Source of the DNA: Candidatus Poribacteria bacterium
GTDB taxonomy: Bacteria > Poribacteria > WGA-4E > PCPOR2b
Length of the DNA: 64,000 bases
Direction: 5' to 3'
Assembly (NCBI GenBank): GCA_963665285.1
Contig: OY762266.1
Coordinates: forward strand, 1,032,059 to 1,096,058
Positions 8,560 to 34,820 of this stretch are shown here, one piece after another (the first letter of the stretch is position 1; every line of letters starts with the position of its first letter). The translations under genes were made by a program, and so were the position numbers. The notes under the pieces were generated by a model that saw only the letters and a list, made by a program, of their open reading frames with translations, did no database searches and was not told the origin of the DNA.

Positions 8560-9975
8560 TTTACCAATCTTGCGTGCAATGCCCCATCCCTTTAGGGTGG
8601 GGCTGTAGCCCGCCCAAGTGCGTTGTTAGTCAAAAAACGGTTGAAATTGCAGGAAAAGATGCTACAGTTACCTTGGCTTTCGTGAGAGGGCGCAACTTCC
8701 CTGCTTAGTGGTGTCTCTCACCTCCAATTGCGTGGACATGAACTCCAGATAGCCGAGTCCCTATGAAAACCTACAAGTTCAAAATGTATAGCAACCACAA
8801 TAATCGTGAGTTGCAAAAAACGATTGACAGCCATGCTCACGTGTGGAATCACTTTGTGGCGTTGTGTCGCCGATACTATGCTATCTACGGGACATATCCG
8901 GGTAAGAAAGCACTGATGCGCCACTTAACCAAGTTGAAGCGGCTTCCCCGCTTTGCCCATTGGAATCAGTTGCCGAGTCAATCGTTGCAAGACGTGATAG
9001 ACCGACTTGATAAAGCGTACTCTAAACTGTTTACTGACAGCAAAAGCGGCAAACGTTCGGGTCGTCCCCGTTTCAAGAGACGTAAACTATACAAGTCCTA
9101 CACGCTCAAGCAAGCCGGTTGGAAACTGCTACAAGACAACTATATCCGTATCGGCAAACGGATATACCGGTATTTCAAAAGTCGGGAAGTCTTAGGCACG
9201 CCGAGACGCTGCACGATTAAGCGCGACAGCGTAGGAGACGTATGGCTAATCATTCTGACAGACCATGTAGATACCGATTTAGAGTCGCCCACGACGGGTA
9301 ATAACGCGGGGTTTGACTTTGGACTAAAGAGGTATCTCACCGGGTCTGACTTCAATGACTACGACTCTCCACAATTCTTCAAGCGCGGTCTCAACGCTAT
9401 CAAACGCGCAAACCGCAACCACTCACGAAAGGTTAAAGGTTCAAACAACCGTGAACGTGCGAGACTCAATGTTGCAAGGAAACACCGGCGTATTGCCAAT
9501 CAAAGAGCCGACTTCCATTGGCAGCTAGCGCATGAGCTAACAGACCGGTATGATTGGATTTCACTGGAGACCCTCAACATTAAGGGCCTGAAGTCCCTTT
9601 GGGGTCGTAAGGTCTCTGATTTGGGGTTCTATGACTTCGTACAGAAACTGAAGTATATTGACTCTAAGAAACAGCATCGTGAAGTCCGATTCATTGATAA
9701 GTGGTATCCATCAAGCCGAACCTGTCACGGCTGCGGCATAGTTAATCAAGACCTGAACCTTCGTGATAGAACATGGCAGTGTCCAAGCTGCCACACACAG
9801 TTGGATAGAGACCGCAATGCGGCACTCAATATCCATAGGGTGGGGGCATCCACCCTCTCAGAAGAGGTCGTAAGTCCCAGTTCACCGGGCTAACTTCGTT
9901 GATAGAGCAATTCGACGCCTTAAAGGGAACGGGTGAGAATACCCACCCTTTAGGGTGTGGGAGTATGTCAATCCC
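8560..9975 (+). mobile_element. IS200/IS605-family insertion sequence of the tnpB-only (IS1341-like) type; boundaries approximate
   Basis: TnpB ORF flanked by similar subterminal hairpins sharing the core CCCTTTAGGG (8581-8603 and 9943-9961); no tnpA present. Confidence 0.5.
8763..9893 (+). CDS. tnpB: TnpB (IS605 OrfB family RNA-guided endonuclease-like protein)
   Basis: C-terminal RuvC-II (SLETLNIKG), zinc finger CHGCG...CPSCH and RuvC-III DRDRNAALNI motifs; 376 aa. Confidence 0.9.
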   Translation: MKTYKFKMYSNHNNRELQKTIDSHAHVWNHFVALCRRYYAIYGTYPGKKALMRHLTKLKRLPRFAHWNQLPSQSLQDVIDRLDKAYSKLFTDSKSGKRSGRPRFKRRKLYKSYTLKQAGWKLLQDNYIRIGKRIYRYFKSREVLGTPRRCTIKRDSVGDVWLIILTDHVDTDLESPTTGNNAGFDFGLKRYLTGSDFNDYDSPQFFKRGLNAIKRANRNHSRKVKGSNNRERARLNVARKHRRIANQRADFHWQLAHELTDRYDWISLETLNIKGLKSLWGRKVSDLGFYDFVQKLKYIDSKKQHREVRFIDKWYPSSRTCHGCGIVNQDLNLRDRTWQCPSCHTQLDRDRNAALNIHRVGASTLSEEVVSPSSPG

Positions 9976-10792
9976 ACCGTGCCCAGACGTTCGGGGTGAC
10001 CTGCCCCTCGTCAATGTACGGATCTTCACCAGCGACAGTGATAATACCGCGGTAATTTCGCTGCCCCTTCCAACCCAACCACGATGCTGTTGAACAATAG
10101 TGGCTCACAAAGATACGCCGAAATGTGTCGCTTCGGTTCTTTTTGGAACGGTGTAAGAGGTAACCGTTGAAAAAGAGGACACTGCCAGCTGACATCTCGA
10201 TCGGAATCTCGGCAGTGTCATCAAAACCCACAGCTTCTTGGCAGCTGTCGAATTCATCGCGTTTGTCGTGCGGCACACGATCGTAAATTACACCGGAACG
10301 ATGGCTATTTGGCAGAACCCAAAGGCAGCCGTTCTCAATTGTGGCATCATCTAATGTAATCCACACGCCAATCAGCGATCTATCCCGTGTCGGAATCGGA
10401 TGTTCGTCTTGGTGCCAAGGGTTACCGGTATGCCCAGGGACTTTGCTCAACATCATTGACTGCATGCACTTCACCCCACCGTCCCAAAATGGGATATGCG
10501 CCCCAACAATGTCTCGGAGTACTTCACAGATTCCTGGATGCTCAATGTAACGCCGAACCAAAGGGCTAAAGACATGCGGTTCGCCGACACACATGATTCT
10601 ATCTAATACTTCTGTCTCGCTTGCTGTTCCCGGCATCGGCGGGATCGCCTCACACGGATAATCCCCCCGAAAAATCTTCAGCATCTCTGTTTTCAAATCG
10701 TTGCATTCTTCCGGTGTAATGAGATCCGGAAGCATTAAATATCCGTCGTTGATATAGGATTTTGCCCAAAGATTAGAATGCCCTTGTTCCAT
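9968..10792 (-). CDS. Phytanoyl-CoA dioxygenase (PhyH) family Fe(II)/2-oxoglutarate oxygenase
   Basis: Motifs WHQDEH, LWVLPNSHR and LLHRS characteristic of the PhyH family. Confidence 0.85.
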   Translation of the reverse strand: MEQGHSNLWAKSYINDGYLMLPDLITPEECNDLKTEMLKIFRGDYPCEAIPPMPGTASETEVLDRIMCVGEPHVFSPLVRRYIEHPGICEVLRDIVGAHIPFWDGGVKCMQSMMLSKVPGHTGNPWHQDEHPIPTRDRSLIGVWITLDDATIENGCLWVLPNSHRSGVIYDRVPHDKRDEFDSCQEAVGFDDTAEIPIEMSAGSVLFFNGYLLHRSKKNRSDTFRRIFVSHYCSTASWLGWKGQRNYRGIITVAGEDPYIDEGQVTPNVWARWD

Positions 10793-11148: not shown

Positions 11149-12477
11149 ATGAAACGTTTCACATCGGTTCTAACCATTACCATCCTTTTCTTAGTGACGG
11201 GACTCTGTTTTGGCCACGGCGACCGGGAAGTCGCGGAAGACCAAGAGACAGTCAAATCCACAGGATTCTGGATTTACAACGATCTCAATCAAGGTTTCGC
11301 CGAAGCCCAAAAGACAGGTAAACCGTTACTCGTTGTCTTCCGCTGAGTGCCGTGAGTGAGCTGCAAAGGCTTCGACGAACAGGTTGTTCGTCACGATAAA
11401 AGAATTAGCGAATTGATGGAACAGTTCGTCCGTGTCCGAATTATTCAGGGCAATGGGATGGATTTATCGCTCTTCCAATTTGATTATGACCTAACATTCG
11501 CTGCGTTCTTCCTTAATGCCGACAGGACCATCTACGGACGCTTCGGCACACGGTCAAACTTTGAAAATGCGGCGAAAGACATCTCCCTCCAAGGATTCAG
11601 GAAAGCCCTCGAAGGCGCCCTCGAACTCCACAGAGATTACCCTGCAAACAAGGAATTGCTAGCAGGCAAAACCGGACCGGAACCACAGAAAAAAGTACCA
11701 GAAGCCTATCCGGCACTGCTGCGATATACCGCTCAACTAAATTTCAACGACCGTATAAATGCGCAGTGCATCCACTGCCATCAGGTCGGGCAAGCACAGC
11801 GAGAGGTCTACTGGTACGAACGGAAGCCGGTTCCCGATCACGTGCTGTATCCATTTCCACTGCCAAGCGTTTTGGGATTGACGTTTTCGCCCAATCATCC
11901 GGCGAAGATTCGCAACATCGCCCCTGGCTCATCGGCAGAGAAGGACGGTTTTCGTAGTGCCGATGAACTCCTGACCCTTAATGGCCAACCAATCCTCTCC
12001 ATTGCAGACATACAGTGGATTCTACACCGCGCCCCCTCGACAGGTTCACTGCCCGCGAAAATTAACCGACGTGGACAAGAGATCGATTTGAGAATCACAC
12101 TCAACGACGGATGGCGGCAGGGAAGCGATATCTCTTGGCGCACGACGACACAAGAGTTGCGCCTCGTCGCCCTCGGCGGCATGACCCTGCAGAATCTTTC
12201 TGAGGTTGACCGTCAGCGTAGAGGGATTAGTGAAACAGAGATGGGGCTGAGAGTTGGGAGTATCAATCGTGCTGGACGGCGCGGTGGACAGACCAATGCA
12301 GCCAAAGCAGGGATTCAACGGGGTGATGTCATTGTCGCATTCGGCGATCGAACGCAACGGCTAACGGAAAGTGGCATTATCGGTTATGTGCTTCAGGTAC
12401 GTCCGGAAGCGAAGGCACTGCCTATAGTCGTTTTGCGAGATGGCAAACAGATGGAGTTCCAACTGTCGTTGGAATAG
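11149..12477 (+). CDS. Periplasmic thioredoxin-like (Thioredoxin_7/DsbD-gamma-like) plus PDZ protein with two in-frame TGA codons (11344-11346, 11353-11355); candidate selenoprotein
   Basis: Signal peptide; GKPLLVVFR-TGA-VP-TGA-VSCK aligns with GKPVLVDFxAxWCxxCK of thioredoxin-like proteins, so the second TGA sits at the first Cys of the CxxC motif. The reading frame continues without any other interruption into a 373-aa ORF with a C-terminal PDZ domain. Confidence 0.5.
11374..11392 (+). promoter_or_regulatory. Hairpin GACGAAC-AGGTT-GTTCGTC 18 nt downstream of the second in-frame TGA; candidate bacterial SECIS element
   Basis: 7-bp perfect stem with a G-containing apical loop, at the distance range expected for bSECIS. 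Confidence 0.3.
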
Positions 12478-12549
12478 CTCATACCATAATTCGCCCTCGG
12501 ATAAAAAGATGCGGATAAGTTGCTAATAGCTCAAATCGAACACATAAAC

Positions 12550-12617
12550 TGCGTAATGAGTAATACGTCATACCTAAAGGACAGTCTTGCACATTACTCA
12601 TTGCGTATTATTTTTTT
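12550..12617 (+). terminator. Rho-independent terminator-like hairpin (about 15-bp stem, 26-nt loop) followed by TTATTTTTTT
   Basis: The inverted repeats AATGAGTAAT and ATTACTCATT, with extending pairs, lie between the thioredoxin/PDZ gene and the O-methyltransferase gene. Confidence 0.45.
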
Positions 12618-12637
12618 AGGTAAAACAGGAGAGATTT

Positions 12638-13318
12638 ATGGAACGTTTAGACGTGCTTCATCCATCAATTGACGAATACCTACTTGATGTTATTCCAGCG
12701 CGCGACGAGGTACTAACAGAGATGGAGGCATACGCACGGGAACGTCGTTTCCCGATTGTGGGCCCGCTCGTTGGTCGTGTGTTACACCAACTGGTACTGC
12801 TGACGAACCCAACGAGGATTTTCGAGATGGGATCCGGCTTTGGCTACTCGGCATATTGGATGGCAAAGGCGTTGCGTCAGCCGGAAGCGCGCATTATCTG
12901 CACCGACGGCTCGCAGGAGAACGCTGATCGTGCGGCGGGTTATCTTGGGCGAGGCGGAATTGCAAATCGTATCGACTATCGTGTGGGGAACGCACTCGAA
13001 ATCATCGAAGAAACCGAAGGGGAATTTGACATCATCTACAATGACATTGACAAAGATGGCTATCCCGACGCGTTTCGCAAGGCGATTCCACGGCTCAGGA
13101 GTGGTGGACTGTTTATCACGGACAACATGCTATGGCTGGGGCGTGTAGTCACATACGATACCGATGCTGACGTGCAAGAACTTGATGAAGAAGAGCAATG
13201 GGTGCACAATACCACAGTCGGGGTCAAAGAGTTGACATGGCTGCTTTACAGTTCCCCCGATGTGTTCACGACAATCATCCCGCTTCGTGATGGGGTATCA
13301 GTTGCAATAAAACGTTAA
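12638..13318 (+). CDS. Class I SAM-dependent O-methyltransferase (caffeoyl-CoA OMT-like)
   Basis: Motifs FEMGSGFGYS and D..Y.D.DK typical of the O-methyltransferase family 3 fold. Confidence 0.8.
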   Translation: MERLDVLHPSIDEYLLDVIPARDEVLTEMEAYARERRFPIVGPLVGRVLHQLVLLTNPTRIFEMGSGFGYSAYWMAKALRQPEARIICTDGSQENADRAAGYLGRGGIANRIDYRVGNALEIIEETEGEFDIIYNDIDKDGYPDAFRKAIPRLRSGGLFITDNMLWLGRVVTYDTDADVQELDEEEQWVHNTTVGVKELTWLLYSSPDVFTTIIPLRDGVSVAIKR

Positions 13319-13320
13319 TC

Positions 13321-13914
13321 CTACTTCGATGCCAGATGATACACTTCGATTTCGCGGACTTGAGCCCATGCTGGCTGAATAACACGGAAGTGAGGATAAT
13401 ACGCGCCGGCAAGTGTGGTCCTTCGATCTACAACCTTGTCGCCGGGCGATAACATAACCTTTGTAACAACGTTATCATCGACTGTACGGGAAACATTGAT
13501 GCGGATAGTGTTTGTCCGACAGTTTAACCGATCAATAACAATTTCTGACTGTGCACGCCCTTCACCAATATCCCGCAGCTGACGCACAGAGTGGACCGTC
13601 TTCCACTCAAACTTATCAAGATCCCAATAGTCGACATGAAACCAGAACAGATTGACGTTATGAACGATAATCTTCCGAACCTGTTTAACCTCCGGGAACC
13701 GTAACGTAAAGATCCGTTCATTTTTCGCGGCCACAGCCGCAACCGTATCTAATCGCCCATCATTGAGTGCTGGATGGTTCGCCTCTGACCCATAGCTCGC
13801 CAGCGCAAAGTTCTCACTCCATGAATTGGCTAATAGAGAGGACCATACACAACCGGACAAGCCAACACAAGCAAATAACAACAAGAAAATCCCAAACTGC
13901 TTTAGAGCGTTCAT
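13321..13914 (-). CDS. Hypothetical lipoprotein
   Basis: Signal peptide with lipobox LSGC; no confident family assignment. Confidence 0.5.
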   Translation of the reverse strand: MNALKQFGIFLLLFACVGLSGCVWSSLLANSWSENFALASYGSEANHPALNDGRLDTVAAVAAKNERIFTLRFPEVKQVRKIIVHNVNLFWFHVDYWDLDKFEWKTVHSVRQLRDIGEGRAQSEIVIDRLNCRTNTIRINVSRTVDDNVVTKVMLSPGDKVVDRRTTLAGAYYPHFRVIQPAWAQVREIEVYHLASK

Positions 13915-14023
13915 CTTTTTACCTCGCAATCTCATTTTACATCACCTCATCCTTAGCTGCAGCCCGTCGCTGTAGGCGGGACAGGATGTCCCGCCGCGTC
14001 AGACAACTTTCTCAAACAAAACA

Positions 14024-14800
14024 CTAGTATCGAACATAAGGACGAATGTAAGACGCTTCATGTTTAGAACGAAACCAAGTTCGTTGGAATTTTCCGATTA
14101 GAAACATTCCCACCCCAAACCCACCGACATGCGCCACCCAAGCGATAGACGCGCCTTGGAACGAAAAATAGACATTAACTAGTTGGATAGCGATCCAAGG
14201 TAACAGCAGAACAATTGCGGGCACGGAGATAATATAGATAAAGAGAAGGCATCGAACACGCGCCTTGGGACAGGCGATAAAGTGCGCTCCCAATACGCCG
14301 GCGATTGCGCCACTCGCGCCAATCAGGGGCAAATTAGAATTGTAGTAAATCATCACGTAACAGAGCGTCGCCAACACACCGCACAACAGATAGAACAGGA
14401 AAAATTTCAGACTCCCAATCATACTTTCAAGGGTGGGACCAAAAGCCGAGAGATACAGCATGTTACCAATAATGTGGATAAATCCCCCCTGCAAAATGTG
14501 GACATCGTGCAAAAATAGTGAAGTGAGAAGCGTCTTATCAAAAAGGTTTGGAAGCGGTGGGAGGAACGAATGGCGATGCATAATCTGGTTGGGAATTGCG
14601 CCAGATACTTCTGCCAACGACACCCCTTGATAGAGTGCGTAAAGCTGATATACAAAGACCAAGAAATTTGTAACGATTAAAAATTGGACCGCGCGGGGCT
14701 TAAAAGACTTCTGCGTCGATGATGTGCTCGGCAGTGGGATAAACAAAGTGTCGTGTCCTTTCGACAAGTGAGCAGATAGACAAATCTGCGATAACGTCAC
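14024..14800 (-). CDS. Rhomboid family intramembrane serine protease
   Basis: GASGAIAG (catalytic Ser) and AHVGGFGVG (catalytic His) in a polytopic membrane protein. Confidence 0.8.
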   Translation of the reverse strand: MTLSQICLSAHLSKGHDTLFIPLPSTSSTQKSFKPRAVQFLIVTNFLVFVYQLYALYQGVSLAEVSGAIPNQIMHRHSFLPPLPNLFDKTLLTSLFLHDVHILQGGFIHIIGNMLYLSAFGPTLESMIGSLKFFLFYLLCGVLATLCYVMIYYNSNLPLIGASGAIAGVLGAHFIACPKARVRCLLFIYIISVPAIVLLLPWIAIQLVNVYFSFQGASIAWVAHVGGFGVGMFLIGKFQRTWFRSKHEASYIRPYVRY

Positions 14801-14838
14801 ACATTAACTACGACACATGACACTTTACGTTTCACGTT

Positions 14839-15117
14839 TCACGCCTCGCTCGACACATCAAACCGATCAATGATTCCCATCACCAACTCCCTTATAGGAG
14901 CGGTTTCGATCTCAAAGACCTCTTGGGCAACCCCCGGCCCCGCCCCAACCAGCACGATATCGTTCTCTCCCGCCCCAACATAGTCAACGGCAATCGTCGG
15001 TGTTCGTACCAACTGGGATTTCAAACTCAACGGTTGAACAAGCAGAAGGGTTCGATTGTCATAAGCAGGGTGCTTAATGACCGAAACCACTTTACCAATG
15101 ACCTTTGCGATGTACAT
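14839..15117 (-). CDS. EutN/CcmL-family bacterial microcompartment vertex (BMC-P) protein, paralog 2
   Basis: MYIAKVIGKVVS...LLLVQP N-terminus typical of EutN/CcmL/PduN; its ATG overlaps the upstream stop by 1 nt (TGATG) and a GGAGGAG RBS lies inside the end of the upstream gene. Confidence 0.7.
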   Translation of the reverse strand: MYIAKVIGKVVSVIKHPAYDNRTLLLVQPLSLKSQLVRTPTIAVDYVGAGENDIVLVGAGPGVAQEVFEIETAPIRELVMGIIDRFDVSSEA

Positions 15118-15401
15118 CACTCCTCCGCTTCTTCGGTTACAGTAATTGAATCAACAATTCCAACCACAGCGACATCGACAGGCATTGCACGCTCTGCTGA
15201 TACAAATGCGGCATCTCCACCGGTGACGATATAGATCAGTTCTCCATACCCAGCGGCACCTTGTATATCCACAGCGGTGACAGGATCGCCAACAGATTCC
15301 CCTTCCGCATCAAGGGGTTGTACGACCAACAGACGATAGCCAACTAAACTCGGATCTTTTCGAGTTGCAACAATGGTCCCGATGACCTTTCCAATATCCA
15401 T
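15117..15401 (-). CDS. EutN/CcmL-family bacterial microcompartment vertex (BMC-P) protein, paralog 1
   Basis: MDIGKVIGTIVATRKDPSLVGYRLLVVQPLDAEGE... is a strong match to the EutN_CcmL consensus. Confidence 0.75.
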   Translation of the reverse strand: MDIGKVIGTIVATRKDPSLVGYRLLVVQPLDAEGESVGDPVTAVDIQGAAGYGELIYIVTGGDAAFVSAERAMPVDVAVVGIVDSITVTEEAEE

Positions 15402-15415
15402 AGACCTACGCTCAC

Positions 15416-16870
15416 CTAACCCCTTTGAATCCCATACTCCTCCATCTTAGAATGGAGTGTATTCCGATTAATACCGAGGATCTCAGCGGCTTTCCTGCGA
15501 TTCCAGCCGGTACGCTGGAGAATAAACTCAAAGAGCGGTTTTTCAACAGCAATGCGAATATCTGCGTGAAGTGATCCAGAGGTTGCCCCTGATTCGACAA
15601 ATTCATCCACACGCTCCGACATAAGCGAAGCAAGCCGACTCTCAAAACCTGTCGGTGCTTTTGTAATGGGCGACACCGGGTTTCCAGATAGTTCAGGGAA
15701 ATGTTCCGGAAGGAGTACCTGACCGGCACACATTACGAGCGCACGCTTCAAGCTATTTTCAAGTTCACGGACGTTTCCGGGCCAATCATAAATCGTCAGC
15801 AGCTTGAACGCTTCCGGCGAAATTGCGCCTTGCGGTTCGCCATAATCCTGAGCATACCGGGACATAAAAAAATTGACTAGATCAGGAATATCCTCTTTTC
15901 GCTCACGTAACGGAGGCAAAGAGATTGGCACCACATTTAGCCGATAAAACAGATCTTCCCGAAACGCCCCCTCCTGAATTGCCAGATCAAGACGCCGATT
16001 CGTGGCGGCAACCACGTGCACATCAACCTTCCGAATCTCATTTGATCCAATCGGTTCAACCTCCCGCTCTTGGAGAACACGCAACAGTTTCATCTGCACT
16101 TCTATCGGCAATTCACCAACTTCATCCAGAAAAATCGTCCCCCGATCTGCCTGTTCAAATTTCCCTTGACGCGCCGTGTCGGCACCCGTATAGGCCCCTT
16201 TAACATGCCCAAAGAGTGCACTTTCAATCAAGTCCGAGGGAATCGCACTACAATCTACCACCACAAACGCTTCATCCGCCCGTTTACTATTTTGGTGAAT
16301 CGCTTTGGCGATTGATTCCTTACCTGTACCACTCTCGCCCATAATTAGAACGGTTTCGTCGCTGATTGCCGCCCGTCCAATGGTCAGGTAGATCACGTGC
16401 ATCGCATCGCTCTCACCAACAATCTGAGTGCCCACATCTTCCCCGTTTTGTGGTGCAACGCTATCGTCTGGTAGCGAATCCTCCGCCATCACGGTTTTCA
16501 TTTGATCAGCAGCATATACCGCACGAGATACCAAAGGCATAATCTCTTGGAGATCGAAAGGCTTGGTCACATAGTCATAAGCGTGCCGCTTTGCAGCTTC
16601 AATCGCGGTTTGCGTTGTACCGTGAGCGGTGATAACAATAATTGATGCAGCTTTATTGATCTCCTGCAGCTCTTCAATTAACTCTAACCCGTTGACATCA
16701 GGCATAAAAATGTCGAGGAAAATCGTGTCGATCGCTTCTGAGCGGAGGAGATCAATCGTTTCTTTCCCGTTTCGTGCAGAAAATGTGTGATACCCCTCGT
16801 TCTGAAGGGCTTTCTCCAACACAAAGCGGATGCTATCGTCGTCGTCAGCGATGAGAATTGTGTGTGTCAT
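15416..16870 (-). CDS. Sigma-54-dependent response regulator (NtrC family: REC, AAA+ sigma54 activator, Fis-type HTH)
   Basis: Receiver domain ADDDDSIRF...; Walker A GESGTGKE; GAFTGA-like GHVKGAYTGA; C-terminal HTH. Confidence 0.9.
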   Translation of the reverse strand: MTHTILIADDDDSIRFVLEKALQNEGYHTFSARNGKETIDLLRSEAIDTIFLDIFMPDVNGLELIEELQEINKAASIIVITAHGTTQTAIEAAKRHAYDYVTKPFDLQEIMPLVSRAVYAADQMKTVMAEDSLPDDSVAPQNGEDVGTQIVGESDAMHVIYLTIGRAAISDETVLIMGESGTGKESIAKAIHQNSKRADEAFVVVDCSAIPSDLIESALFGHVKGAYTGADTARQGKFEQADRGTIFLDEVGELPIEVQMKLLRVLQEREVEPIGSNEIRKVDVHVVAATNRRLDLAIQEGAFREDLFYRLNVVPISLPPLRERKEDIPDLVNFFMSRYAQDYGEPQGAISPEAFKLLTIYDWPGNVRELENSLKRALVMCAGQVLLPEHFPELSGNPVSPITKAPTGFESRLASLMSERVDEFVESGATSGSLHADIRIAVEKPLFEFILQRTGWNRRKAAEILGINRNTLHSKMEEYGIQRG

Positions 16871-16941
16871 AGAGACCTAATGATAGTTGTTTAAACCGAG
16901 ACCGGCAGCTGCAAAAACACCATTAACCCTAAGTAGGGTGT

Positions 16942-17766
16942 CTAAATTATAATATCTAAGCTGTGGGTGTAGAGTTCGATGTCCAACCGTGCCGCCAATC
17001 CAACAGCGTTGGGATCAACAAACGGAGATATGAAGAATTTTCGATTTACGGCTACATTTTCCGTCTGCTCAAAGAATGCTACTTTTCTTTGAAAAAGGGA
17101 AAGGTCACTGCGGCTGACTGATGACTTAATTTCAATTGCAATCACTGAAGCGTTCCGGATGATTACATCCATCTCTATCTGTTCCGGATGTCCGAAAACC
17201 GATCCGGAATCGTCATAACCCTCGTACCGTTCCACCCGGAAACCGAGTTCATCCGTCAAAATTGCAGCAAGCCCATTGCGGAATGCCTCTTCAGACTGCA
17301 ATCCCCATCGCGCGCCAAGCCCTTGAATAGTATGGTTGAATCGCCTTATGGCATCATTTGTATATGCACGTGACGCGCTGGACTCTTCGCGTAGGGCCTT
17401 TATCTCCTGCCGGAATTCAACCCACCGCTGCTCGGACTCCTCACGTAGCCGATTGGACTCCTCGCGTAGGATTTGCATCTCCTGCCGGAACTCAACCCAC
17501 CGCTGCTCGGACTCCTCACGTAGGACTTGCATCTCCTGCCGGAACTCAACCCGCTGTCGTTCAGATTCCTCACGCATCTGCTTGAGCTCATTCAAAATCG
17601 CTGTTATATCTTCTTTTTTGGCAAAAGTCTCCGACATAACACCAATCAACTCATAACGAATCTCTGCATTTTGGGTTATTAGGCGCGGAAATTCATTAGC
17701 GATTAATTCGCGAATTTCTTCTTCAGTTAATGATATGTTTCTTTCATCCGTCATATCTGTACTCAC
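16942..17766 (-). CDS. DUF3782-family protein: coiled-coil with three ~20-aa tandem repeats (SEQRWVEFRQEMQ) and a C-terminal nuclease-like domain
   Basis: The repeat architecture and LGARWGLQSEEAFRNGLAAIL segment resemble DUF3782 proteins; D...EMDVIIRN...AIEIK suggests a PD-(D/E)XK-like fold. Confidence 0.55.
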   Translation of the reverse strand: MSTDMTDERNISLTEEEIRELIANEFPRLITQNAEIRYELIGVMSETFAKKEDITAILNELKQMREESERQRVEFRQEMQVLREESEQRWVEFRQEMQILREESNRLREESEQRWVEFRQEIKALREESSASRAYTNDAIRRFNHTIQGLGARWGLQSEEAFRNGLAAILTDELGFRVERYEGYDDSGSVFGHPEQIEMDVIIRNASVIAIEIKSSVSRSDLSLFQRKVAFFEQTENVAVNRKFFISPFVDPNAVGLAARLDIELYTHSLDIII

Positions 17767-17775
17767 TGAATTTGC

Positions 17776-19308
17776 TCAAACCGGCAATGTGATAATAAAC
17801 GTTGCACCTGGAGTTTCTGCCACATTAACCTCAATGGTGCCGCCGTGCTCCTCAACAATTTGCTGGCTAATCGCTAGCCCTAGCCCTGTCCCTTTCTGTT
17901 TCGTTGTGTAAAAAGGATCGAACAAACGCGAAGCGACATCCGGCGGTATGCCACGTCCGGTATCCTTGATATAAATTTGAACCACCTGAATCAGGGGATT
18001 ATAGGCGGTTTCAATCGTCAAGACGCCCCCGTCGTCCATCGACTCAATTGCATTCCGAAATAGGTTCAACAACACCTGCGTCATTCCGTCATCGTTCACG
18101 GCAACCGATGGACAATCGTCAGCAAGACGTTTCTCAATCCGTATATTGTCCCGATCCAACTCCGGCTGACAAATCGAGAGGCTATTCTCGATTAAGTCAT
18201 TAATGGCATTCGGCTTAACGCCGGCGGTACGTGGGTTGCCCGACACAAGTAGCTGCTCAACCACACGATTCAGCCGATCCACCTCTTTGATAATGACCTG
18301 AATATACTCTTGAATCTCTGAATTCGATTCGCCCTCAAGTTGGAGCAACTGCGCCGCACCGCGGATCCCACCAAGGGGGTTTCTCACCTCGTGCGCCACC
18401 GTCGTCGCAAGTTTACCCAGTGCTGCGAGCCTTTCGGATTGAACCAGCGAGTCGATCATCTGCTGAATTTTAACGCGCTGTGCCACAATCGCAGCGATAA
18501 TTGTCAAGATACGGATATCGTCCTCAATCGAAAATTCGTCCGACGCTTTATCGATTGTTAGTGTACCGACGACTTTTTCATCAACAATCACGGGGACGCA
18601 CCAGAACGCTATTGAATCTTTAGACTGCACCAATTTCGCATCTGGAAACTCAATCTGCTGAAGGGGCGTGCGACTGTGTGGCACACCAATCGGGTGACCG
18701 GATTGCAGCACCTGTTGTTGGATAATATCGATTTGGCTGTCCGTTCCGCGTCGGAGTTCCGCCTCTGTCAACCCAAAAACTGCCTCCACCTTTTTAACCA
18801 ACTCGCCATCTTCCCAAATTCTCAGTGCACCCCGGTATACCCCCACCTGATTAGCAAGCGTTTTGATAATCTTTTGGAACAGCTCGTCCAATTCTACAGC
18901 GGTATTTGCTGTATCACCAATATCAAAAAGGGTGGATAGATCCCGCACCCGTTTTTCAAGGTCTGTGTTGACTTGATCTATCTGCTGAAGCTGCGTTTCA
19001 GTGGTGGCGCGTTGCGCTTTGAAAAGCTGGATAGTGCGAACGATAAAATACGCGATAATAGGATATAAGATCGCAACCACACCCAAATGGATTTGCTCAT
19101 AGTAGATCCCAGCGTGTATCCAATTGGCGAGTGTCGTGCACGCAAGCAGCAGATACTGTCCGCGACGGTTGTCGTATATCCCCGCGAGGATTATAACCCC
19201 GTAGTAAAGATGCGAGACAACGCCGTAGCTCTCCGGGCTATGCAAGCCGTAAACAAACAGGTTAATCAGTAGGACGACGAATATCAGGAAGAAAGTTAGC
19301 ATGAGCAA
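17776..19308 (-). CDS. Sensor histidine kinase (transmembrane N-terminus, GAF, HisKA, HATPase_c)
   Basis: H-box VAHEVRNPLGGIRG; G2 box GTGLGLAISQQIVEEHGG. Confidence 0.85.
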   Translation of the reverse strand: MLMLTFFLIFVVLLINLFVYGLHSPESYGVVSHLYYGVIILAGIYDNRRGQYLLLACTTLANWIHAGIYYEQIHLGVVAILYPIIAYFIVRTIQLFKAQRATTETQLQQIDQVNTDLEKRVRDLSTLFDIGDTANTAVELDELFQKIIKTLANQVGVYRGALRIWEDGELVKKVEAVFGLTEAELRRGTDSQIDIIQQQVLQSGHPIGVPHSRTPLQQIEFPDAKLVQSKDSIAFWCVPVIVDEKVVGTLTIDKASDEFSIEDDIRILTIIAAIVAQRVKIQQMIDSLVQSERLAALGKLATTVAHEVRNPLGGIRGAAQLLQLEGESNSEIQEYIQVIIKEVDRLNRVVEQLLVSGNPRTAGVKPNAINDLIENSLSICQPELDRDNIRIEKRLADDCPSVAVNDDGMTQVLLNLFRNAIESMDDGGVLTIETAYNPLIQVVQIYIKDTGRGIPPDVASRLFDPFYTTKQKGTGLGLAISQQIVEEHGGTIEVNVAETPGATFIITLPV

Positions 19309-19374
19309 TTCACGGTTTCAAAAATTACTTCCAATGCAGAACCGAGGAATCAGAAGTCTGAATCGCAAAGAATT

Positions 19375-19983
19375 TTACTGTCCATTCCGCAAGAAATTAT
19401 CAAGCATCTTGAGTCCTATCCGACCGCTCTTCTCCAAATGGAACTGCGTCGCAATCAGGTTCTGATGGGCGACGACACTGGAAAACTCAACGCCATAAGT
19501 GGTCTTGCCGACTATGTACGAATCGTCTTGCGGTATCGGGTAGTACGAGTTGACAAAATAGAAATGGGCGGGATTCGGCACATCGCGAAAAATTGGATGT
19601 GCCTGTGTCTGATACACCTCATTCCAGCCAATCTGTGGCACTTTTTGGGTTGACGTCGCCTCATACTTTTTAACAACGCCGGGCAAGATGCCGAGACAAT
19701 CGGTATCCTCCTCCTCGCTATGCTCAAATAGAATCTGTATACCGATACAGATACCCAACATGGACTTACCCGACTCGTAAACCTCCCACAATATCTCCGC
19801 AAGCCCAGCCGCGTTCAGATTATCCATCGTTGCCCGCGCTGCCCCCACGCCGGGGAAGACAACTTTCTCTGACTCCAAAATGGTCTGGGGGTCGGCGGTA
19901 ATTTCTGCGTCGTAGCCTAAGTATTTGACGGCGCGTTCGACACTCGTCAGGTTGCCCGCACCGTAGTCAATAATTGCAATCAT
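19375..19983 (-). CDS. hisH: Imidazole glycerol phosphate synthase glutamine amidotransferase subunit HisH
   Basis: MIAIIDYGAGNL...PGVG...FHLEKS class I GATase signature; 202 aa. Confidence 0.85.
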   Translation of the reverse strand: MIAIIDYGAGNLTSVERAVKYLGYDAEITADPQTILESEKVVFPGVGAARATMDNLNAAGLAEILWEVYESGKSMLGICIGIQILFEHSEEEDTDCLGILPGVVKKYEATSTQKVPQIGWNEVYQTQAHPIFRDVPNPAHFYFVNSYYPIPQDDSYIVGKTTYGVEFSSVVAHQNLIATQFHLEKSGRIGLKMLDNFLRNGQ

Positions 19984-20096
19984 TGGAGACTCAAGTTGAT
20001 AAAAGATTCGTTTGGAAAACTAAAAAGGGACCGTTGAAATGATGTTGCAGGGTGAAAATTTCGATCTGTGAGAACAGGTTCGAGACGTTCATCTGC

Positions 20097-21029
20097 TCAA
20101 ATGCTATTTGGACTTGACTCAAAAAGTTCTATCTGTTTGGAAGTCGCTGCGGTTCTCGATTTAGTCCGTCCCCAAATGGCTTCCAAGTCCTGCGTGCATT
20201 TATAGTCATTGAATAAGTCTGAAACATCATCCGCTGTTCTTTTCTCAGCAAGTCTTTCTTCGATGATTTCAACATTGATCTTATCGAGTTCAATGCCAAT
20301 CGATTCCCGTCCTAACTGCTCCGCAACGACCAACGTCGTCCCTGAACCTGCAAATGGATCTAATACAACATCGCCGGGATTTGTCGAAGAAAGGATTATC
20401 CGAAGGAGTAATTGAATCGGTGCCTGCTGCTTGTGCAAGCGATTTCCCTCCGCGTCCCGCAAGGCTTCATCTCCAGCAAAATAGCCCGATGTCAACTCAC
20501 GAATATCGTCCCACACATCGGTGACAAACATACCGTTTTCCCGTTCATATTTGTAGCCCGCAGGGAGCGGCGGATTGATTCGCAAGCGGTGAAAGACCCG
20601 TGGACGCTCCCCTTTTGTTGCAAACGCAATGATCTGGTAGTGCTTACCAAAGCGATTCATTCCGGGCACGGCGGACGTTTTCTTTTTCCAAATAATAAGA
20701 TTTTGAAATGTCCACCCAGATTGGCGTAGACACCGTAACACAGACTCAGTTTTCTTTTCACGCTGCATGAAATAGATTGCACCACCCGAAGCAGTTTGGT
20801 CGAAAATCTTCGTGCACACATCCCCCATCCACTTCCAATATTGCGCTTCAGGCAAATTATCATCCCACTCGTTGTAGCCTTTATCTTGATTAAAGGGTGG
20901 ATCGAGAAAGGTGAGATCAATATGCCCGAAAGTGGTGTTCTGTTGATCTAATAGCGAAGTGCAATCTCCATGTAGCACAGCTGCTTTTATTTTATTTTTT
21001 GTTCGCATAGATTCTGTGTTATTTGGCAT
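20097..21029 (-). CDS. DNA methyltransferase, beta-class N4-cytosine/N6-adenine (DPPF then FAGSGTT)
   Basis: Motif IV LDPPFN precedes motif I DPFAGSGTT; N4/N6 MTase family. Confidence 0.8.
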   Translation of the reverse strand: MPNNTESMRTKNKIKAAVLHGDCTSLLDQQNTTFGHIDLTFLDPPFNQDKGYNEWDDNLPEAQYWKWMGDVCTKIFDQTASGGAIYFMQREKKTESVLRCLRQSGWTFQNLIIWKKKTSAVPGMNRFGKHYQIIAFATKGERPRVFHRLRINPPLPAGYKYERENGMFVTDVWDDIRELTSGYFAGDEALRDAEGNRLHKQQAPIQLLLRIILSSTNPGDVVLDPFAGSGTTLVVAEQLGRESIGIELDKINVEIIEERLAEKRTADDVSDLFNDYKCTQDLEAIWGRTKSRTAATSKQIELFESSPNSI

Positions 21030-21243
21030 ATTCTTCTTCGCGGAGTTCGGCAATAGCTTGGGTGGCATACTTTACAACTGTTTCCTCACTTACGCCCTTA
21101 TTTTTCTCATGCACCCGGTCCATGACCGCTAACACCTTTTGAAATGCTCTACCCCTTACCAATCTCTTCTGAATCGTCGCTTGCCCGTTTCTCATAATTT
21201 TCATAATACCGTAGTCAATAATCTTGGCCATGTTATATCCCAT
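21019..21243 (-). CDS. Small hypothetical protein between the endonuclease and the methyltransferase (possible controller or accessory protein)
   Basis: Its start overlaps the stop of the upstream ORF; no recognisable motif. Confidence 0.3.
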   Translation of the reverse strand: MGYNMAKIIDYGIMKIMRNGQATIQKRLVRGRAFQKVLAVMDRVHEKNKGVSEETVVKYATQAIAELREEEYAK

Positions 21244-22325
21244 TACGCGAAAAAACCATCATTGATCATAATGCGAAAACCATTGATTTCAGCTTCCTGC
21301 TTTAGATTCGTAAGACGATTTTTCCCTGAACGGCTAATCGAATTAAGACTGAAACCCTCACCCGTCGTCAGCTTCAAAATTGGCACAGGATTGTAATTTG
21401 TCTCATCAATGTTCAGATGCTCCAAGTTCGTAAATAGTATCATCTTCACCAAACCATCCTTTATGTCACCGAGAGAGGGAAGTTCAGCTTTGTTCGTATG
21501 CTTCGCCTCAATCAGATGGATTTCCTCCCCATGGATCTCAACCTCATCACAGGTTAAATAGTAATTGCCACCAAGATAATTTTTGATGGTTAGCTTTCCT
21601 TTGATCCCCGTTACGAGCTCTTTGGGCTGTGTAGTGACACTTTCCCTTGCCTGTGCCTGCCTTGCCAAATCCCTTGATAGTGCCTTAAATTCTGCTTGAC
21701 CTTCACGAAGTATGCCGATTCGACGTTCCGCAGATTCCCAAGAGTGCATTTCCACGCTTAATTTTTCGGATATAGTCGAATAGGCATTCAACGCCTGCGA
21801 GCCAATTTCGCCGATACCTTCGACTTGCGTCATGTTCCAGTGCAAGGCATCGGACTGATAAGACATCAAGCGATCAATTTCGCTGATGATGTGCTCTGAA
21901 TTAAACTTTTGACCCGTGATTTTATGTGTGTATCTTGTGCTTTTTGAAGCATCAACATAGTAGCCAATTATCACGTAAACACCCAACAGACTCATTAAAG
22001 AGATTGTATCCCATTGGAGAAAGTCTCGATCGCCCTGTTTACCCTCATCCTTCAAAATTGGAATTATCGTCGCTTTTTTGCCAGAAAAACTCAGGGTATC
22101 ATAGACTCTTGAATACGGGTAAGACCGTGTCCTTTTTGGTGAAACCCAGCAGCTTAAAGCAATCTGCTTGTTTGGATCAATCTGTAAAATAAAAGTTGCT
22201 TTGTCTGAAAGCGTTGCGTCAAAATCTTTATAACTGAAAGATTTAAGTTTGCTGCATAGAAGTGGGGTATATTTTACTCCAGTGATCCTAGCGAAAATAT
22301 CCATCGGGTTCTCGTTACACCTCAA
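21243..22325 (-). CDS. Putative Type II restriction endonuclease
   Basis: Flanked by two methyltransferases on the same strand; candidate PD-(D/E)XK core CDEVEIHGEEIHLIEAKHT. Confidence 0.5.
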   Translation of the reverse strand: MRCNENPMDIFARITGVKYTPLLCSKLKSFSYKDFDATLSDKATFILQIDPNKQIALSCWVSPKRTRSYPYSRVYDTLSFSGKKATIIPILKDEGKQGDRDFLQWDTISLMSLLGVYVIIGYYVDASKSTRYTHKITGQKFNSEHIISEIDRLMSYQSDALHWNMTQVEGIGEIGSQALNAYSTISEKLSVEMHSWESAERRIGILREGQAEFKALSRDLARQAQARESVTTQPKELVTGIKGKLTIKNYLGGNYYLTCDEVEIHGEEIHLIEAKHTNKAELPSLGDIKDGLVKMILFTNLEHLNIDETNYNPVPILKLTTGEGFSLNSISRSGKNRLTNLKQEAEINGFRIMINDGFFA

Positions 22326-22331
22326 ACAAGA

Positions 22332-23189
22332 TTAAAACAACTCCCCTTGATCAACAATTGGACGCAGTTGACCGACCGAATAATCTATATATTTTTGCTG
22401 CGTCTCAATTCCGATATGCGCTCTGCCCAATTTTTCTGCGGCACAATTTGTTTGCCCACTTCCAGCAAAAATGTCAATCACCACATCTCCCCTATAAGAA
22501 TAAAACTGAATGACCCGTTCCGCAAGTTCCAACGGAAATGGACACGGATGCAGATTCTCTTGTGGGGCTACTGGACGGATTTTCCAGACGTTTTTGCTCT
22601 TCTCGCCTTGGTAATCCTTCAGGTCAATTTCATTTTGGGTTTTCTCTTTAACACTTCTATTCCAATAAATGTTGTTCTGATTTTTCTTATCGGCAGGCTT
22701 TTGAAAGACAAATACATATTCGGCAACCAAACTTGGATAGTAATATCCGGGATAGGGATGCTGTAACAAGACACCTGACCGTCTATCCCTCGCAACGGGC
22801 TTTTCCCAGATAATATCCTCCTTGAATTGCCATCCAATATCTTCAAGCCAACTGACAAAATGAAATGGGAGTGCAGTGCGTGTGCCGTTCCATAAGACCG
22901 GGGCAATATTTACCACATTGTGTCCCCCCGGCTGAGTGATTCTCAATAACGCCTTGAATCGATTAACTAGAAAAAGCCGATATTCCTCGTAGGATATATC
23001 TTCTCGCTCCCATCTCGCTTTGGTGCCGTGTAGCTTTTCAATATGCTCCTCGTAATTGATTGCGTTTAGGTAAGGAGGCGAGGTGAAACCAAGCATAAAA
23101 TGGTTGTCAGGAAAATTATCCATAACCGAGAGACAATCCCCTTTGATAATCCGCCCATTACCAATTTTGATTTCTTCTAAGGCTGCCAT
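22332..23189 (-). CDS. DNA methyltransferase, beta-class with SPPY motif (likely N4-cytosine- or N6-adenine-specific)
   Basis: FTSPPY motif IV and DIFAGSGQT motif I; start MAALEE at 23189 chosen so that it does not overlap ribH. Confidence 0.8.
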   Translation of the reverse strand: MAALEEIKIGNGRIIKGDCLSVMDNFPDNHFMLGFTSPPYLNAINYEEHIEKLHGTKARWEREDISYEEYRLFLVNRFKALLRITQPGGHNVVNIAPVLWNGTRTALPFHFVSWLEDIGWQFKEDIIWEKPVARDRRSGVLLQHPYPGYYYPSLVAEYVFVFQKPADKKNQNNIYWNRSVKEKTQNEIDLKDYQGEKSKNVWKIRPVAPQENLHPCPFPLELAERVIQFYSYRGDVVIDIFAGSGQTNCAAEKLGRAHIGIETQQKYIDYSVGQLRPIVDQGELF

Positions 23190-23214
23190 AAGCTTAAAGT
23201 GTCTATCAGTTGGT

Positions 23215-23685
23215 CTATCCGTCAATCTGCCGATACAGATTCGCCATCTCAATCGCCGTGACCGCCGCCTCTGCCCCTTTATTCCCCGCCTTGGTGCCAG
23301 CACGTTCAATCGCCTGCTCAATCGTATCAGTCGTGATAACGCCGTAAATCACAGGGATCCCCGTGTTCAAAGAGACCTGTGCGATCCCTTTCGCGCTTTC
23401 GTTGGCGACATAGTCAAAGTGCGGGGTCGCACCGCGAATCACTGCACCGATACAGATGATCGCATCGTATCGCCCTTTTTCGGCGAGCCGTTTTGCCGTA
23501 GTGGGAATCTCGAACGAACCGGGCGTCCAGCAGATGTCCACATCGTCCTCGTCCACACCGTGGCGCTTGAGTGCGTCAAGAGCCCCATCCAACAATTTAG
23601 TGGTAATAAAGCTATTAAATCGACTGATCACGATCCCGATCTTCAGATCAGTGCCGATAAGATTGCCTTCGTAGATATTTGGCAT
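23215..23685 (-). CDS. ribH: 6,7-dimethyl-8-ribityllumazine synthase
   Basis: 156 aa; IGIVISRFN...GAVIRGAT...HFDYV signature. Confidence 0.9.
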
Positions 23686-25643: not shown

Positions 25644-26147
25644 AACTATCTGCTTTGATCTAATCTCGCTGTTAAGATCTGTCCCCAATTTTTGTCGGGG
25701 ATGTCGGTTGTGGACTAGGTGAGTAATTATAGCATGAGCGGGGGGCTCTGTAAACCAAAAACCTGCAAGCCCTGAGAGATCTCAATTTCGAAATACAGAC
25801 TCTACCGGGGAATGTCTTTCCAACGACAGCCACTCACAAAAAAACTTGACACACAATCCGATGTCATAGTAGTGTATCTACCCCTCCATCGTTGGGCGAT
25901 TTCTTGCCCGTGTGGACGTGTGCCAAATTGTGCAACTATTAATTTCAGATTCATTGTAACTTTGATAAATCTCGTAGGGGCATTGAGGACTCACGGTTTA
26001 GTAACTCTCGCAGACAAATTGAACTGGAGGTAACTCAGCACCCGTTTTCCCAAAACACATGACAAATTACACAACTACTTGATCGTAGAGGAGCCGACAT
26101 TTATGAGAGCGCAATTTTTCCGTTTCTGCTTCTTCCGATGCGACAAA

Positions 26148-28113: not shown

Positions 28114-28185
28114 CTAGTCATTGGAGATAACACCATCTCCAATATAACTCCGGTTACAAACCTAACCAAGCTGGTATGGCTAGAT

Positions 28186-32397: not shown

Positions 32398-32478
32398 TGC
32401 TACCTCCATTCTTGTACCATTCCAGACCAGAACCCGATTGCATGTTGCAATCGAAAACTAGTGAAAAAGGAGTGTATT

Positions 32479-34656: not shown

Positions 34657-34820
34657 AACGAGAGTTAATCACCCCGATTGATGGACTAGCACCGCTCCTA
34701 GAACGGAAGAACAGAATCGTCACTGTTTTTGTGGATAGGCGGGGCATCTTGCCCCGCCCCCGGGACTGAGAAAATCCGATTGTACGCTACAATTCATATT
34801 CAACAAAAAGGAGCTTTCTA

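Follow-up and report, generated by a model that had tools for sequence, protein, structure and literature searches.

Poribacteria are dominant sponge symbionts, and whether and how their cells are compartmented has been a matter of debate for two decades. Kamke et al. (2014; PLoS One 9:e87353, Text S1 and Table S3) described poribacterial BMC groups A to D, which sit at separate loci, and counted two PF00936 and three PF03319 genes in SAG 4E and one and three such genes, respectively, in SAG 3G. Axen et al. (2014) regarded every sequenced Poribacteria locus as "satellite-like". Sutter et al. (2021; Nat Commun 12:3809, Supplementary Data 2) catalogued the "fragmented" type FRAG2, which is found mainly in Poribacteria (21 of 33 loci) and consists of a BMC-P triplet and two standard BMC-H at dispersed loci. 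In their BMC-P tree, one poribacterial entry is tagged "FRAG2 (sat)", and the FRAG types have no main locus. Microcompartments of these types are represented by shell genes without recognisable cargo, in uncultivated phyla. Jahn (2016) reported that poribacterial BMC-H and PduL are transcribed in sponge tissue, and that the third BMC-P is transcribed at 0.38 times the housekeeping level.

Shell genes separated from the main set are also known from better characterized systems. In Haliangium ochraceum, a satellite locus with an aldolase gene groups two of the three BMC-P paralogs at a distance from the BMC-H gene, and the corresponding main locus contains an aldehyde dehydrogenase. The ccmK3/ccmK4 satellite of the beta-carboxysome likewise encodes shell-protein paralogs away from the main shell genes, and its separate regulation has been proposed as a means to tune the shell (Sutter et al. 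2021).

The locus studied here lies in a 64,000-nucleotide stretch of Candidatus Poribacteria DNA (hereafter referred to as the window), which is 100% identical to the 4.07-Mb Poribacteria metagenome contig ERZ25084387:ctg36568l. It is also 97.2% identical, at the nucleotide level, to contig AQTV01000005.1 of the single-cell genome (SAG) WGA-4E, where EutN1 is identical and the genes are arranged in the same order. The locus comprises the following features:

13321..13935, minus strand: Poribacteria-specific lipoprotein with a predicted CBM32 / F5-8 type C-like jelly-roll (197 amino acids when read from 13914, where the public gene call begins)
14024..14746, minus strand: rhomboid intramembrane serine protease, 240 amino acids by the public gene call (PF01694, 94.5 bits)
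14839..15117, minus strand: eutN2, second BMC-P paralog, 92 amino acids from the ATG at 15117 (PF03319, 75.4 bits)
15117..15401, minus strand: eutN1, BMC-P (EutN/CcmL) vertex-protein paralog, 94 amino acids (PF03319, 86.3 bits)
15416..16870, minus strand: NtrC-family response regulator, 484 amino acids (REC, sigma54-interaction AAA+, AAA lid and HTH_8)
16942..17766, minus strand: DUF3782 and PD-(D/E)XK (PDDEXK_10) protein with a tandem-repeat coiled coil, between the kinase and regulator genes (Pfam)
17776..19308, minus strand: sensor histidine kinase (Pfam GAF, HisKA and HATPase_c)
19375..19983, minus strand: hisH-like glutamine amidotransferase, upstream of the kinase gene (PF00117)

The kinase, DUF3782, regulator and rhomboid genes were recognized by Pfam as the sequence-only reading had described them, and the comparison with catalogued satellite BMC-P loci that it proposed showed that the locus was already known. 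It is the locus that Kamke et al. (2014) named "BMC group B", catalogued in 2021 within FRAG2. As in group B, tandem pfam03319 genes are flanked on one side by a rhomboid and a hypothetical gene, and on the other by a sigma54-type regulator and a histidine kinase, with riboflavin genes beyond. There was no substantive difference between the two, the window being part of a long-read metagenome contig from the same species, with an additional restriction-modification insertion. Text S1 of the 2014 study even describes the two-component system as "interrupted by a hypothetical protein on SAG 4E". The linkage of the vertex genes to this system, singled out as notable in the sequence-only reading, is real and phylum-wide, but was already noted in that study.

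The dispersal of the shell genes and the phylum in which they occur also agree with FRAG2. Two of the three BMC-P genes lie in the window, and the third, like the BMC-H genes, lies outside it. With two adjacent PF03319 genes, the locus has the single kind of shell domain and the contiguous shell genes by which Axen et al. (2014) define a satellite. It shares the pairing of two of three BMC-P paralogs with the H. ochraceum satellite, but its genomic context is different, with a two-component system, a rhomboid and a lipoprotein alongside and no main locus. It differs from ccmK3/ccmK4 in that the latter encode BMC-H hexamers of a carboxysome whose cargo is known, whereas the poribacterial pair consists of BMC-P genes. 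The window thus adds no new system. The comparative analysis adds the phylum-wide association of the two-component system and the vertex pair with a lipoprotein predicted to be CBM32-like, the status of the DUF3782 gene as an insertion, and the absence of a sigma54 promoter, and these results provide concrete hypotheses for FRAG2 research.

Both vertex-gene products matched the Pfam EutN_CcmL profile from end to end (positions 1-83 of 83; cutoff 25 bits), with E-values of 2e-24 for EutN1 and 5e-21 for EutN2, at exactly the coordinates given in the sequence-only reading. Each is a protein of about 90 amino acids with a single PF03319 domain scoring above the gathering score. EutN1 gave full-length matches to CcmL 4n8x (56 bits) and to the Haliangium shell BMC-P pentamer 5v74 (53 bits), EutN2 matched CcmL 2qw7 (44 bits), and each aligned over its full length with ten solved BMC-P sequences. 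The NCBIfam models for CcmL, EutN and CsoS4 yielded only 27-74 bits, against cutoffs of 89-125. Judged by these profile scores, EutN1 and EutN2 are members of the BMC-P family and none of the named orthologs CcmL, EutN and CsoS4. Their similarity to 5v74, 4n8x and 2qw7 suggests that they may form pentamers and occupy shell vertices. The two proteins are 38% identical, consistent with membership of an old BMC-P triplet. The exact EutN1 protein was present in SAG WGA-4E and on 13 recorded contigs, and EutN2 is identical to NCBI MCE2396846.1, annotated as [quoted passage not shown].

No BMC-H gene was detected in the window by tblastn with PduA, CcmK2 and EutM. Pfam scans of 53 of its approximately 60 ORFs of at least 60 amino acids (all those of at least 100 amino acids except one antisense ORF) revealed no PF00936 domain, aldehyde dehydrogenase, PduL or class II aldolase, in agreement with the earlier claim that BMC-H genes and signature enzymes are absent from the window. 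No PF00936 or other shell genes were found within 10 kb on either side in the 80 related loci scanned. In a search with an approximate sequence of the Haliangium BMC-H protein, which gave at least 8000 candidates, there were no Poribacteria among the 120 matches listed, all of which shared 82% identity or more with the query.

We consider it probable (about 75%) that eutN1 and eutN2 encode two of the three BMC-P paralogs of a FRAG2-type fragmented microcompartment of Candidatus Poribacteria. The BMC-H genes, one of them adjoining a PduL phosphotransacylase gene, and the third BMC-P gene would lie elsewhere on the chromosome, as reported for the conspecific genome SAG WGA-4E, with two PF00936 genes and a third PF03319 gene at other loci (Kamke et al. 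2014). By analogy with solved shells, such as 5v74, the pentamers would cap the vertices of a shell with facets of poribacterial BMC-H. The sequence-only reading had left the choice between a satellite of a main locus and a non-BMC use of the pentamer fold; the conspecific SAG and the FRAG2 catalog support the satellite, except that, strictly, there is no main locus, the system being fragmented. Several observations count against a microcompartment: Poribacteria are not reported to contain polyhedral bodies, an antibody to BMC-H labelled a ring at the cell membrane (Jahn 2016), and the genes travelling with the pair encode envelope proteins rather than metabolic enzymes.

These envelope genes lie immediately beyond the pair. 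The rhomboid translation displays HxxxN, GASG and AHxGG motifs; its longest ORF (14024-14800) reaches 14800, and the shorter gene-call start was mapped from the related locus L083. The conserved downstream partner of the eutN pair is a lipoprotein of 197-204 amino acids, omitted from the operon outlined in the sequence-only reading. Its gene followed eutN2 in 65 of 67 species, and in clades lacking the rhomboid it came directly after the eutN2 stop codon, with a conserved Shine-Dalgarno sequence. The lipobox, L-[SN]-[GA]-C, was found at the equivalent position in 50 of 53 orthologs. The 136 homologs identified had no Pfam domain, and all those with a named source were from Poribacteria. The AF2 model (pLDDT 73) had its best Foldseek matches in the PDB to CBM32/discoidin modules (E-values of 3e-5 to 1e-3), and the lipoprotein, as modelled, has a CBM32-like fold. 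A 397-amino acid protein encoded after the rhomboid gene in the clade without the two-component system was rejected as an ortholog, as it is not homologous to the 204-amino acid lipoprotein.

The constancy of the link between eutN2 and the lipoprotein gene, including the Shine-Dalgarno sequence in rhomboid-less clades, together with the lack of a metabolic enzyme, would be expected if the pentamer fold were used outside microcompartments, with EutN1, EutN2, the rhomboid, the lipoprotein and the membrane kinase forming a shell-independent envelope or host-glycan sensing module. The membrane-associated BMC-H immunosignal points in the same direction, as does the finding that, of the four poribacterial SAGs with any such genes, three have at least as many for BMC-P as for BMC-H (Kamke et al. 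2014). We nevertheless consider such a module improbable. Both EutN proteins have canonical full-length BMC-P sequences and neither has a signal peptide or a membrane segment, which places them in a different compartment from the exported lipoprotein; one clade has the pair without the lipoprotein, and Poribacteria genomes encode standard BMC-H whose interface residues are the standard ones (Sutter et al. 2021).

The comparative set consisted of 70 species-level genomes, obtained by scanning a genome collection with EutN1; all the named ones were Poribacteria. The eutN1-eutN2 pair was present in 65 of 67 species-level genomes, and the order hisH-kinase-ntrC-eutN1-eutN2-lipoprotein was kept in about 64 of 65 species; the kinase and NtrC-type regulator genes upstream of eutN1 and the hisH gene upstream of the kinase gene were each conserved in 64 of 65. 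No gene of the locus was better conserved than eutN2, the product of which showed 80-99% identity across the phylum, versus about 52-60% for the kinase and the regulator, which fits a tightly constrained structural protein. The operon of the sequence-only reading stands as far as the two-component linkage is concerned, but the rhomboid is an optional part of the locus (28 of 67 species) and the DUF3782 gene, present in only 10 of 65 species, is a lineage-restricted insertion outside the core locus.

The synteny extends to hisH, a gene without an evident role in BMCs, and, further upstream, to riboflavin biosynthesis genes, all within one conserved block. This would be consistent with inherited gene order, the two-component system, vertex and lipoprotein genes sharing a transcript at most and no function. 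Such an interpretation, which we regard as possible but doubtful, would also accommodate the spacers of 50-400 nt with palindromic repeat elements that separate ntrC from eutN1 and eutN1 from eutN2 in many species, and the independent, conserved sigma70-type promoters before eutN1 in two clades (TTGACA-17-TATGAT and TTGACA-17-TAAAAT). However, order and strand have been maintained across species whose kinases share no more than about 50% identity, and in the clade of the window the gaps narrow to 14-30 nt. So much conservation would not be anticipated between unrelated neighbours, given that these genomes otherwise have many IS elements and rearrangements.

In the window, 14 nt separate the ntrC stop codon (TAG) from the eutN1 ATG at 15401, on the same strand, and the eutN1 stop codon overlaps the eutN2 start as TGATG, with a GGAGGAG Shine-Dalgarno sequence immediately 5', as expected from the distance and the translational coupling proposed in the sequence-only reading. 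A promoter and terminator scan of positions 13000-20200 yielded fewer sites than shuffled sequence and none between ntrC and eutN1. For the vertex pair in this lineage, the short gap and the lack of an intervening site suggest that transcription most likely occurs by read-through of the kinase-regulator operon, and eutN2 would be translationally coupled to eutN1. That the two-component system has a part in regulation is conjectural.

The most specific such role would be direct control of the vertex genes, the phosphorylated regulator activating a sigma54 promoter before eutN1 so that a signal switches on shell capping. The regulator has the complete enhancer-binding architecture of the NtrC family (PF00072, 105 bits; PF00158, 231 bits; PF25601, 86 bits; and PF02954, 46 bits), with a GAYTGA loop in its translation, and scored 474 bits with the NCBIfam ntrC model and 444 bits with AtoC, both below the equivalog cutoffs. 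The kinase, which has hydrophobic segments at its N-terminus on sequence reading, was AtoS/ZraS-like, also below cutoffs. In addition to the conserved position of both genes before eutN1, on the same strand, other NtrC-type regulators adjoin other poribacterial shell genes, in groups C and D (Kamke et al. 2014). However, the -24/-12 promoter that the sequence-only reading suggested seeking before the kinase/DUF3782/ntrC unit was not found: scanning with the consensus TGGCAC-N5-TTGCW (threshold 9/11) revealed no GG-N10-GC site with a score of 9/11 or more in any intergenic gap of the window and 86 related loci, including the ntrC-eutN1, eutN1-eutN2, kinase-ntrC and hisH-kinase gaps. The only recurrent matches, one of 10-11/11 at +20 of eutN1 (codons G-T-V-V-A) and one within eutN2 (G-P-G-V-A), are codon-driven and were rejected as coding artefacts. 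The absence of a sigma54 promoter, together with the sigma70-type promoters of two clades, leaves direct control by the regulator unsupported. In one clade (loci L005, L009 and L010) no two-component system lies near the pair, and the shared synteny of hisH and the riboflavin genes means that conserved order is not in itself proof of a functional link. We therefore give little credence to direct control.

It is equally speculative, and improbable, that the supply of vertex proteins, and with it the closing of FRAG2 shells or their number, is linked to a signal from the envelope or from host glycans, or that the pentamers work at the membrane and not in a classical polyhedral organelle; membrane action would fit the membrane-associated BMC-H signal reported in 2016.

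No RNA family was detected in the window by Rfam at gathering thresholds. A type II restriction-modification insertion separates hisH from ribBA in the window. The DUF3782 gene contains 75-nt and 54-nt tandem repeats, is of variable length among the species that have it, and is disrupted by IS elements in loci L002-L004.

The two ORFs taken for tandem EutN/CcmL paralogs in the sequence-only reading both matched PF03319 (EutN_CcmL) over the whole model, with scores of 86.3 and 75.4 bits (Pfam cutoff 25 bits). Their products, EutN1 and EutN2, are 38% identical and aligned end to end with solved pentameric vertex proteins (BMC-P), including CcmL (4n8x, 2qw7) and 5v74, the pentameric component of an intact shell from Haliangium ochraceum. 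The proposed translational-coupling geometry was also seen in the sequence: the eutN1 stop and eutN2 start codons overlap in TGATG, with a GGAGGAG Shine-Dalgarno sequence ahead, and 14 nt separate the stop codon of the upstream NtrC-like gene from the eutN1 start. NCBI already lists the exact EutN2 sequence as an EutN/CcmL family microcompartment protein of Candidatus Poribacteria. The genes of the locus are:

Upstream of the eutN pair, minus strand: kinase (GAF-HisKA-HATPase)
16942-17766, minus strand, upstream of the eutN pair: DUF3782/PDDEXK_10 protein
Upstream of eutN1, minus strand: NtrC-family response regulator (REC, sigma54 AAA+, lid, HTH_8)
15117-15401, minus strand: eutN1, 94 aa, 86.3 bits
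14839-15117, minus strand: eutN2, 92 aa, 75.4 bits
Downstream of eutN2: rhomboid protease
13321-13935, minus strand, downstream of eutN2: 204-aa ORF with no Pfam match

The claim that the window holds neither a hexamer shell gene nor a signature enzyme was borne out. With PduA, CcmK2 and EutM as queries, tblastn found no hexamer gene (BMC-H) in the window, and no PF00936, aldehyde dehydrogenase, PduL or class II aldolase was found in a Pfam scan of 53 of the approximately 60 window ORFs of at least 60 aa, covering every ORF of at least 100 aa except one antisense ORF.

The segment spanning the locus (12117-18401, 6,285 nt) matches metagenome contig ERZ25084387:ctg36568l (4.07 Mb) at 100% identity and AQTV01000005.1 at 97.2%; the latter has an identical EutN1 protein and a matching gene order. 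Accession AQTV01000000 belongs to a single-cell genome, Candidatus Poribacteria WGA 4E (SAG 4E; Kamke et al. 2014, methods). The locus was there named “BMC group B” (PMC3909097, Text S1, Table S3), with tandem pfam03319 genes, a rhomboid, a hypothetical gene, a two-component pair (sigma54-specific regulator and histidine kinase, between which SAG 4E has a hypothetical protein) and, farther upstream, riboflavin genes. The same study counted two pfam00936 and three pfam03319 genes in SAG 4E (one and three, respectively, in SAG 3G), with a BMC-H gene adjoining pduL at a separate locus (group A) and the third BMC-P at yet another (group C). In sponge tissue, BMC-H and pduL form a single transcription unit, the BMC-H antibody signal is ring-shaped and located at the cell membrane, and group C BMC-P expression is tabulated at 0.38x the housekeeping level (Jahn et al. 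2016, PMC5087111). Axen et al. 2014 described the Poribacteria loci as satellite-like. In FRAG, or fragmented, microcompartment types, shell genes are dispersed among as many as six locations (Sutter et al. 2021, PMC8217296, Supplementary Data 2). Poribacteria account for 21 of the 33 FRAG2 loci in that catalog, a type with three BMC-P and two standard BMC-H, and its BMC-P tree has a poribacterial entry tagged “FRAG2 (sat)”. Shell genes near sigma54-type regulators and rhomboids are recurrent in SAG 4E: a second NtrC-family regulator and rhomboid pair (or2329-or2330, Table S5; outside the window) lies between its two BMC-H genes (“group D”), and the group C BMC-P adjoins an unrelated PAS kinase and an NtrC-type regulator (Kamke et al. 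2014).

The evidence best supports EutN1 and EutN2 as two of three vertex paralogs of a poribacterial FRAG2 compartment, the facets of which would be built of BMC-H proteins encoded elsewhere; in the window's lineage, the pair would be expressed from the 3' end of a two-component-system operon. The placing of BMC-H genes elsewhere is based on the gene counts published for SAG 4E, a conspecific genome, and on the 2021 catalog; we infer that the two proteins form pentamers and cap the shell, and that the genes are co-transcribed. Of the two interpretations proposed from sequence, the satellite one was essentially right, given the separate shell loci in SAG 4E and the FRAG2 entry. A non-shell role of the EutN proteins, exercised jointly with neighbouring envelope proteins, would fit the lack of cargo and the location of the BMC-H signal at the membrane, but the EutN proteins are cytoplasmic and canonical in sequence, making such a role improbable. 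Published work already covers the locus, the regulator genes beside it and its classification; it is an ordinary representative of a known kind.

All EutN1 homologs were from Candidatus Poribacteria (sponge symbionts). One scan of species-representative genomes yielded 70 loci, one per genome, all from Poribacteria or unnamed MAGs. Among loci with sufficient flanking sequence, the histidine kinase, the NtrC-type regulator and hisH were each present in 64 of 65 species, and eutN2 and the 204-aa protein each in 65 of 67. The linkage to the regulator noted earlier is real, but not new, having been described in 2014. The rhomboid is optional (28/67 species) and the DUF3782 gene (10/65) does not belong to the unit. 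Three gene orders predominate: hisH-kinase-NtrC-eutN1-eutN2-lipoprotein was found in 33 species, with an added rhomboid in 17 and with both DUF3782 and rhomboid in 10. In one clade (L005, L009 and L010), eutN1-eutN2-rhomboid lies beside unrelated genes, without the two-component system, and the downstream protein is non-homologous to the 204-aa protein. As the conserved block extends to hisH and, farther upstream, riboflavin genes, conserved order alone is weak evidence of common function. Identity to the window across the phylum was 80-99% for EutN2, far higher than for EutN1 (59-98%), the regulator (about 60%), the lipoprotein (about 55%) and the kinase (about 52%). Columns at least 95% conserved between the window and L011-L080 amounted to 60% for EutN2 and 48% for EutN1, a marked difference despite adjacency and presumed co-transcription.

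The promoter search speaks against direct sigma54 control of the eutN genes by the regulator next to them. A -24/-12 promoter in front of the kinase/DUF3782/ntrC unit, proposed as a check, was not found: no GG-N10-GC site with at least 9/11 matches to TGGCAC-N5-TTGCA was seen upstream of eutN1, eutN2, ntrC or the genes for the DUF3782 protein and the kinase, in the window, all related loci and each intergenic gap. High-scoring matches that recurred at position +20 in eutN1 and within eutN2 were rejected as products of conserved codons. A conserved sigma70-type promoter lies just before eutN1 in two clades (TTGACA-17-TATGAT in L032, L033, L041, L044, L063, L079 and L080; TTGACA-17-TAAAAT in L005, L009 and L010). 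Between ntrC and eutN1, the window's clade has a gap of 14-30 nt, too short for a promoter and with no predicted terminator, so co-transcription of the pair with ntrC is the simplest inference. In a distant clade (L030-L077), an AT-rich element, AATGAATTAAATSAAATTGAGATTATACTA, occupies the last 35 nt ahead of the eutN1 ATG (L034, 9966-10000, for example), abutting the start codon; it lacks a Shine-Dalgarno sequence, is conserved while the flanking spacer has diverged, and could be an operator, leader or promoter. Recurring palindromic elements (e.g. GTAGGTCGGGTAGAGCGAAGCGAAACCCGAC, CTGTAGGAGCGATCTCCGAATCGCGAC and GTAGCACAAACTGTTAGTTTGTGC) fill the ntrC-eutN1 and eutN1-eutN2 spacers of L030-L078 (locus positions ~9950-10700) in many Poribacteria species; they resemble REP/MITE-type repeats, which would have separated eutN1 from eutN2 by as much as 1.4 kb (L065).

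Tandem repeats of 75 nt and 54 nt make the DUF3782 gene variable in length and build the coiled-coil region of its protein (DUF3782/PDDEXK_10; about 118 to 385 aa among relatives). In L002-L004, an IS element interrupts the gene. It is therefore an insertion rather than a unit component. Its protein weakly matches the PADLOC candidate-defence model C3a181 (57 bits), and the gene resembles one of mobile or defence type placed inside the kinase-regulator operon.

The 204-aa protein has 136 homologs that all appear poribacterial, and in 50 of 53 orthologs a lipobox, L-[SN]-[GA]-C, sits at the corresponding position. Its AlphaFold model (mean pLDDT 73, 37-sequence alignment) matched CBM32 and F5-8 type C jelly-rolls in a Foldseek search of the PDB (E 3e-5 to 1e-3, target TM 0.5-0.69). 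The lipobox and predicted fold mark it as an exported, probably glycan-binding lipoprotein rather than a candidate for cargo. Where clades lack the rhomboid, the lipoprotein gene comes directly after eutN2, with a conserved TTTCTGGAGGAAACAAAATG. A GC-rich hairpin without a trailing T-run, GGCGGGACA-TCC-TGTCCCGCC (13975-13995, minus strand), lies between the rhomboid and lipoprotein genes and could be an RNA stability, attenuation or repeat element.

Elsewhere in the window, a type II restriction-modification cluster (20097-23321, minus strand) lies between hisH and ribBA; L001, a related locus, has two adjacent MTase genes and no endonuclease gene at the corresponding place. Regions 26079-38144 and 48410-51889 (plus strand) encode large repeat proteins that are eukaryote-like and of a kind typical for sponge symbionts: LRR + cadherin (416 aa), cadherin/Ig/dockerin/T9SS-tail (1403 aa), dockerin/FlgD_ig (731 aa), WD40 (1107 aa) and FG-GAP + TPR (1159 aa). 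Other features are:

20097-21068, minus strand: MTase
21019-21243, minus strand: 74-aa ORF
21243-22325, minus strand: REase (PADLOC REase_II, 302 bits; no Pfam match)
22332-23321, minus strand: MTase
8763-9893, plus strand: TnpB/IS605 OrfB-type gene (OrfB_IS605 and Cas12f1-like TNB domains; PADLOC Cas12f-like, 153 bits)
27321-28100, minus strand: IS4/5 transposase
9968-10792, 57701-58501 and 62354-63148: three PhyH dioxygenase genes
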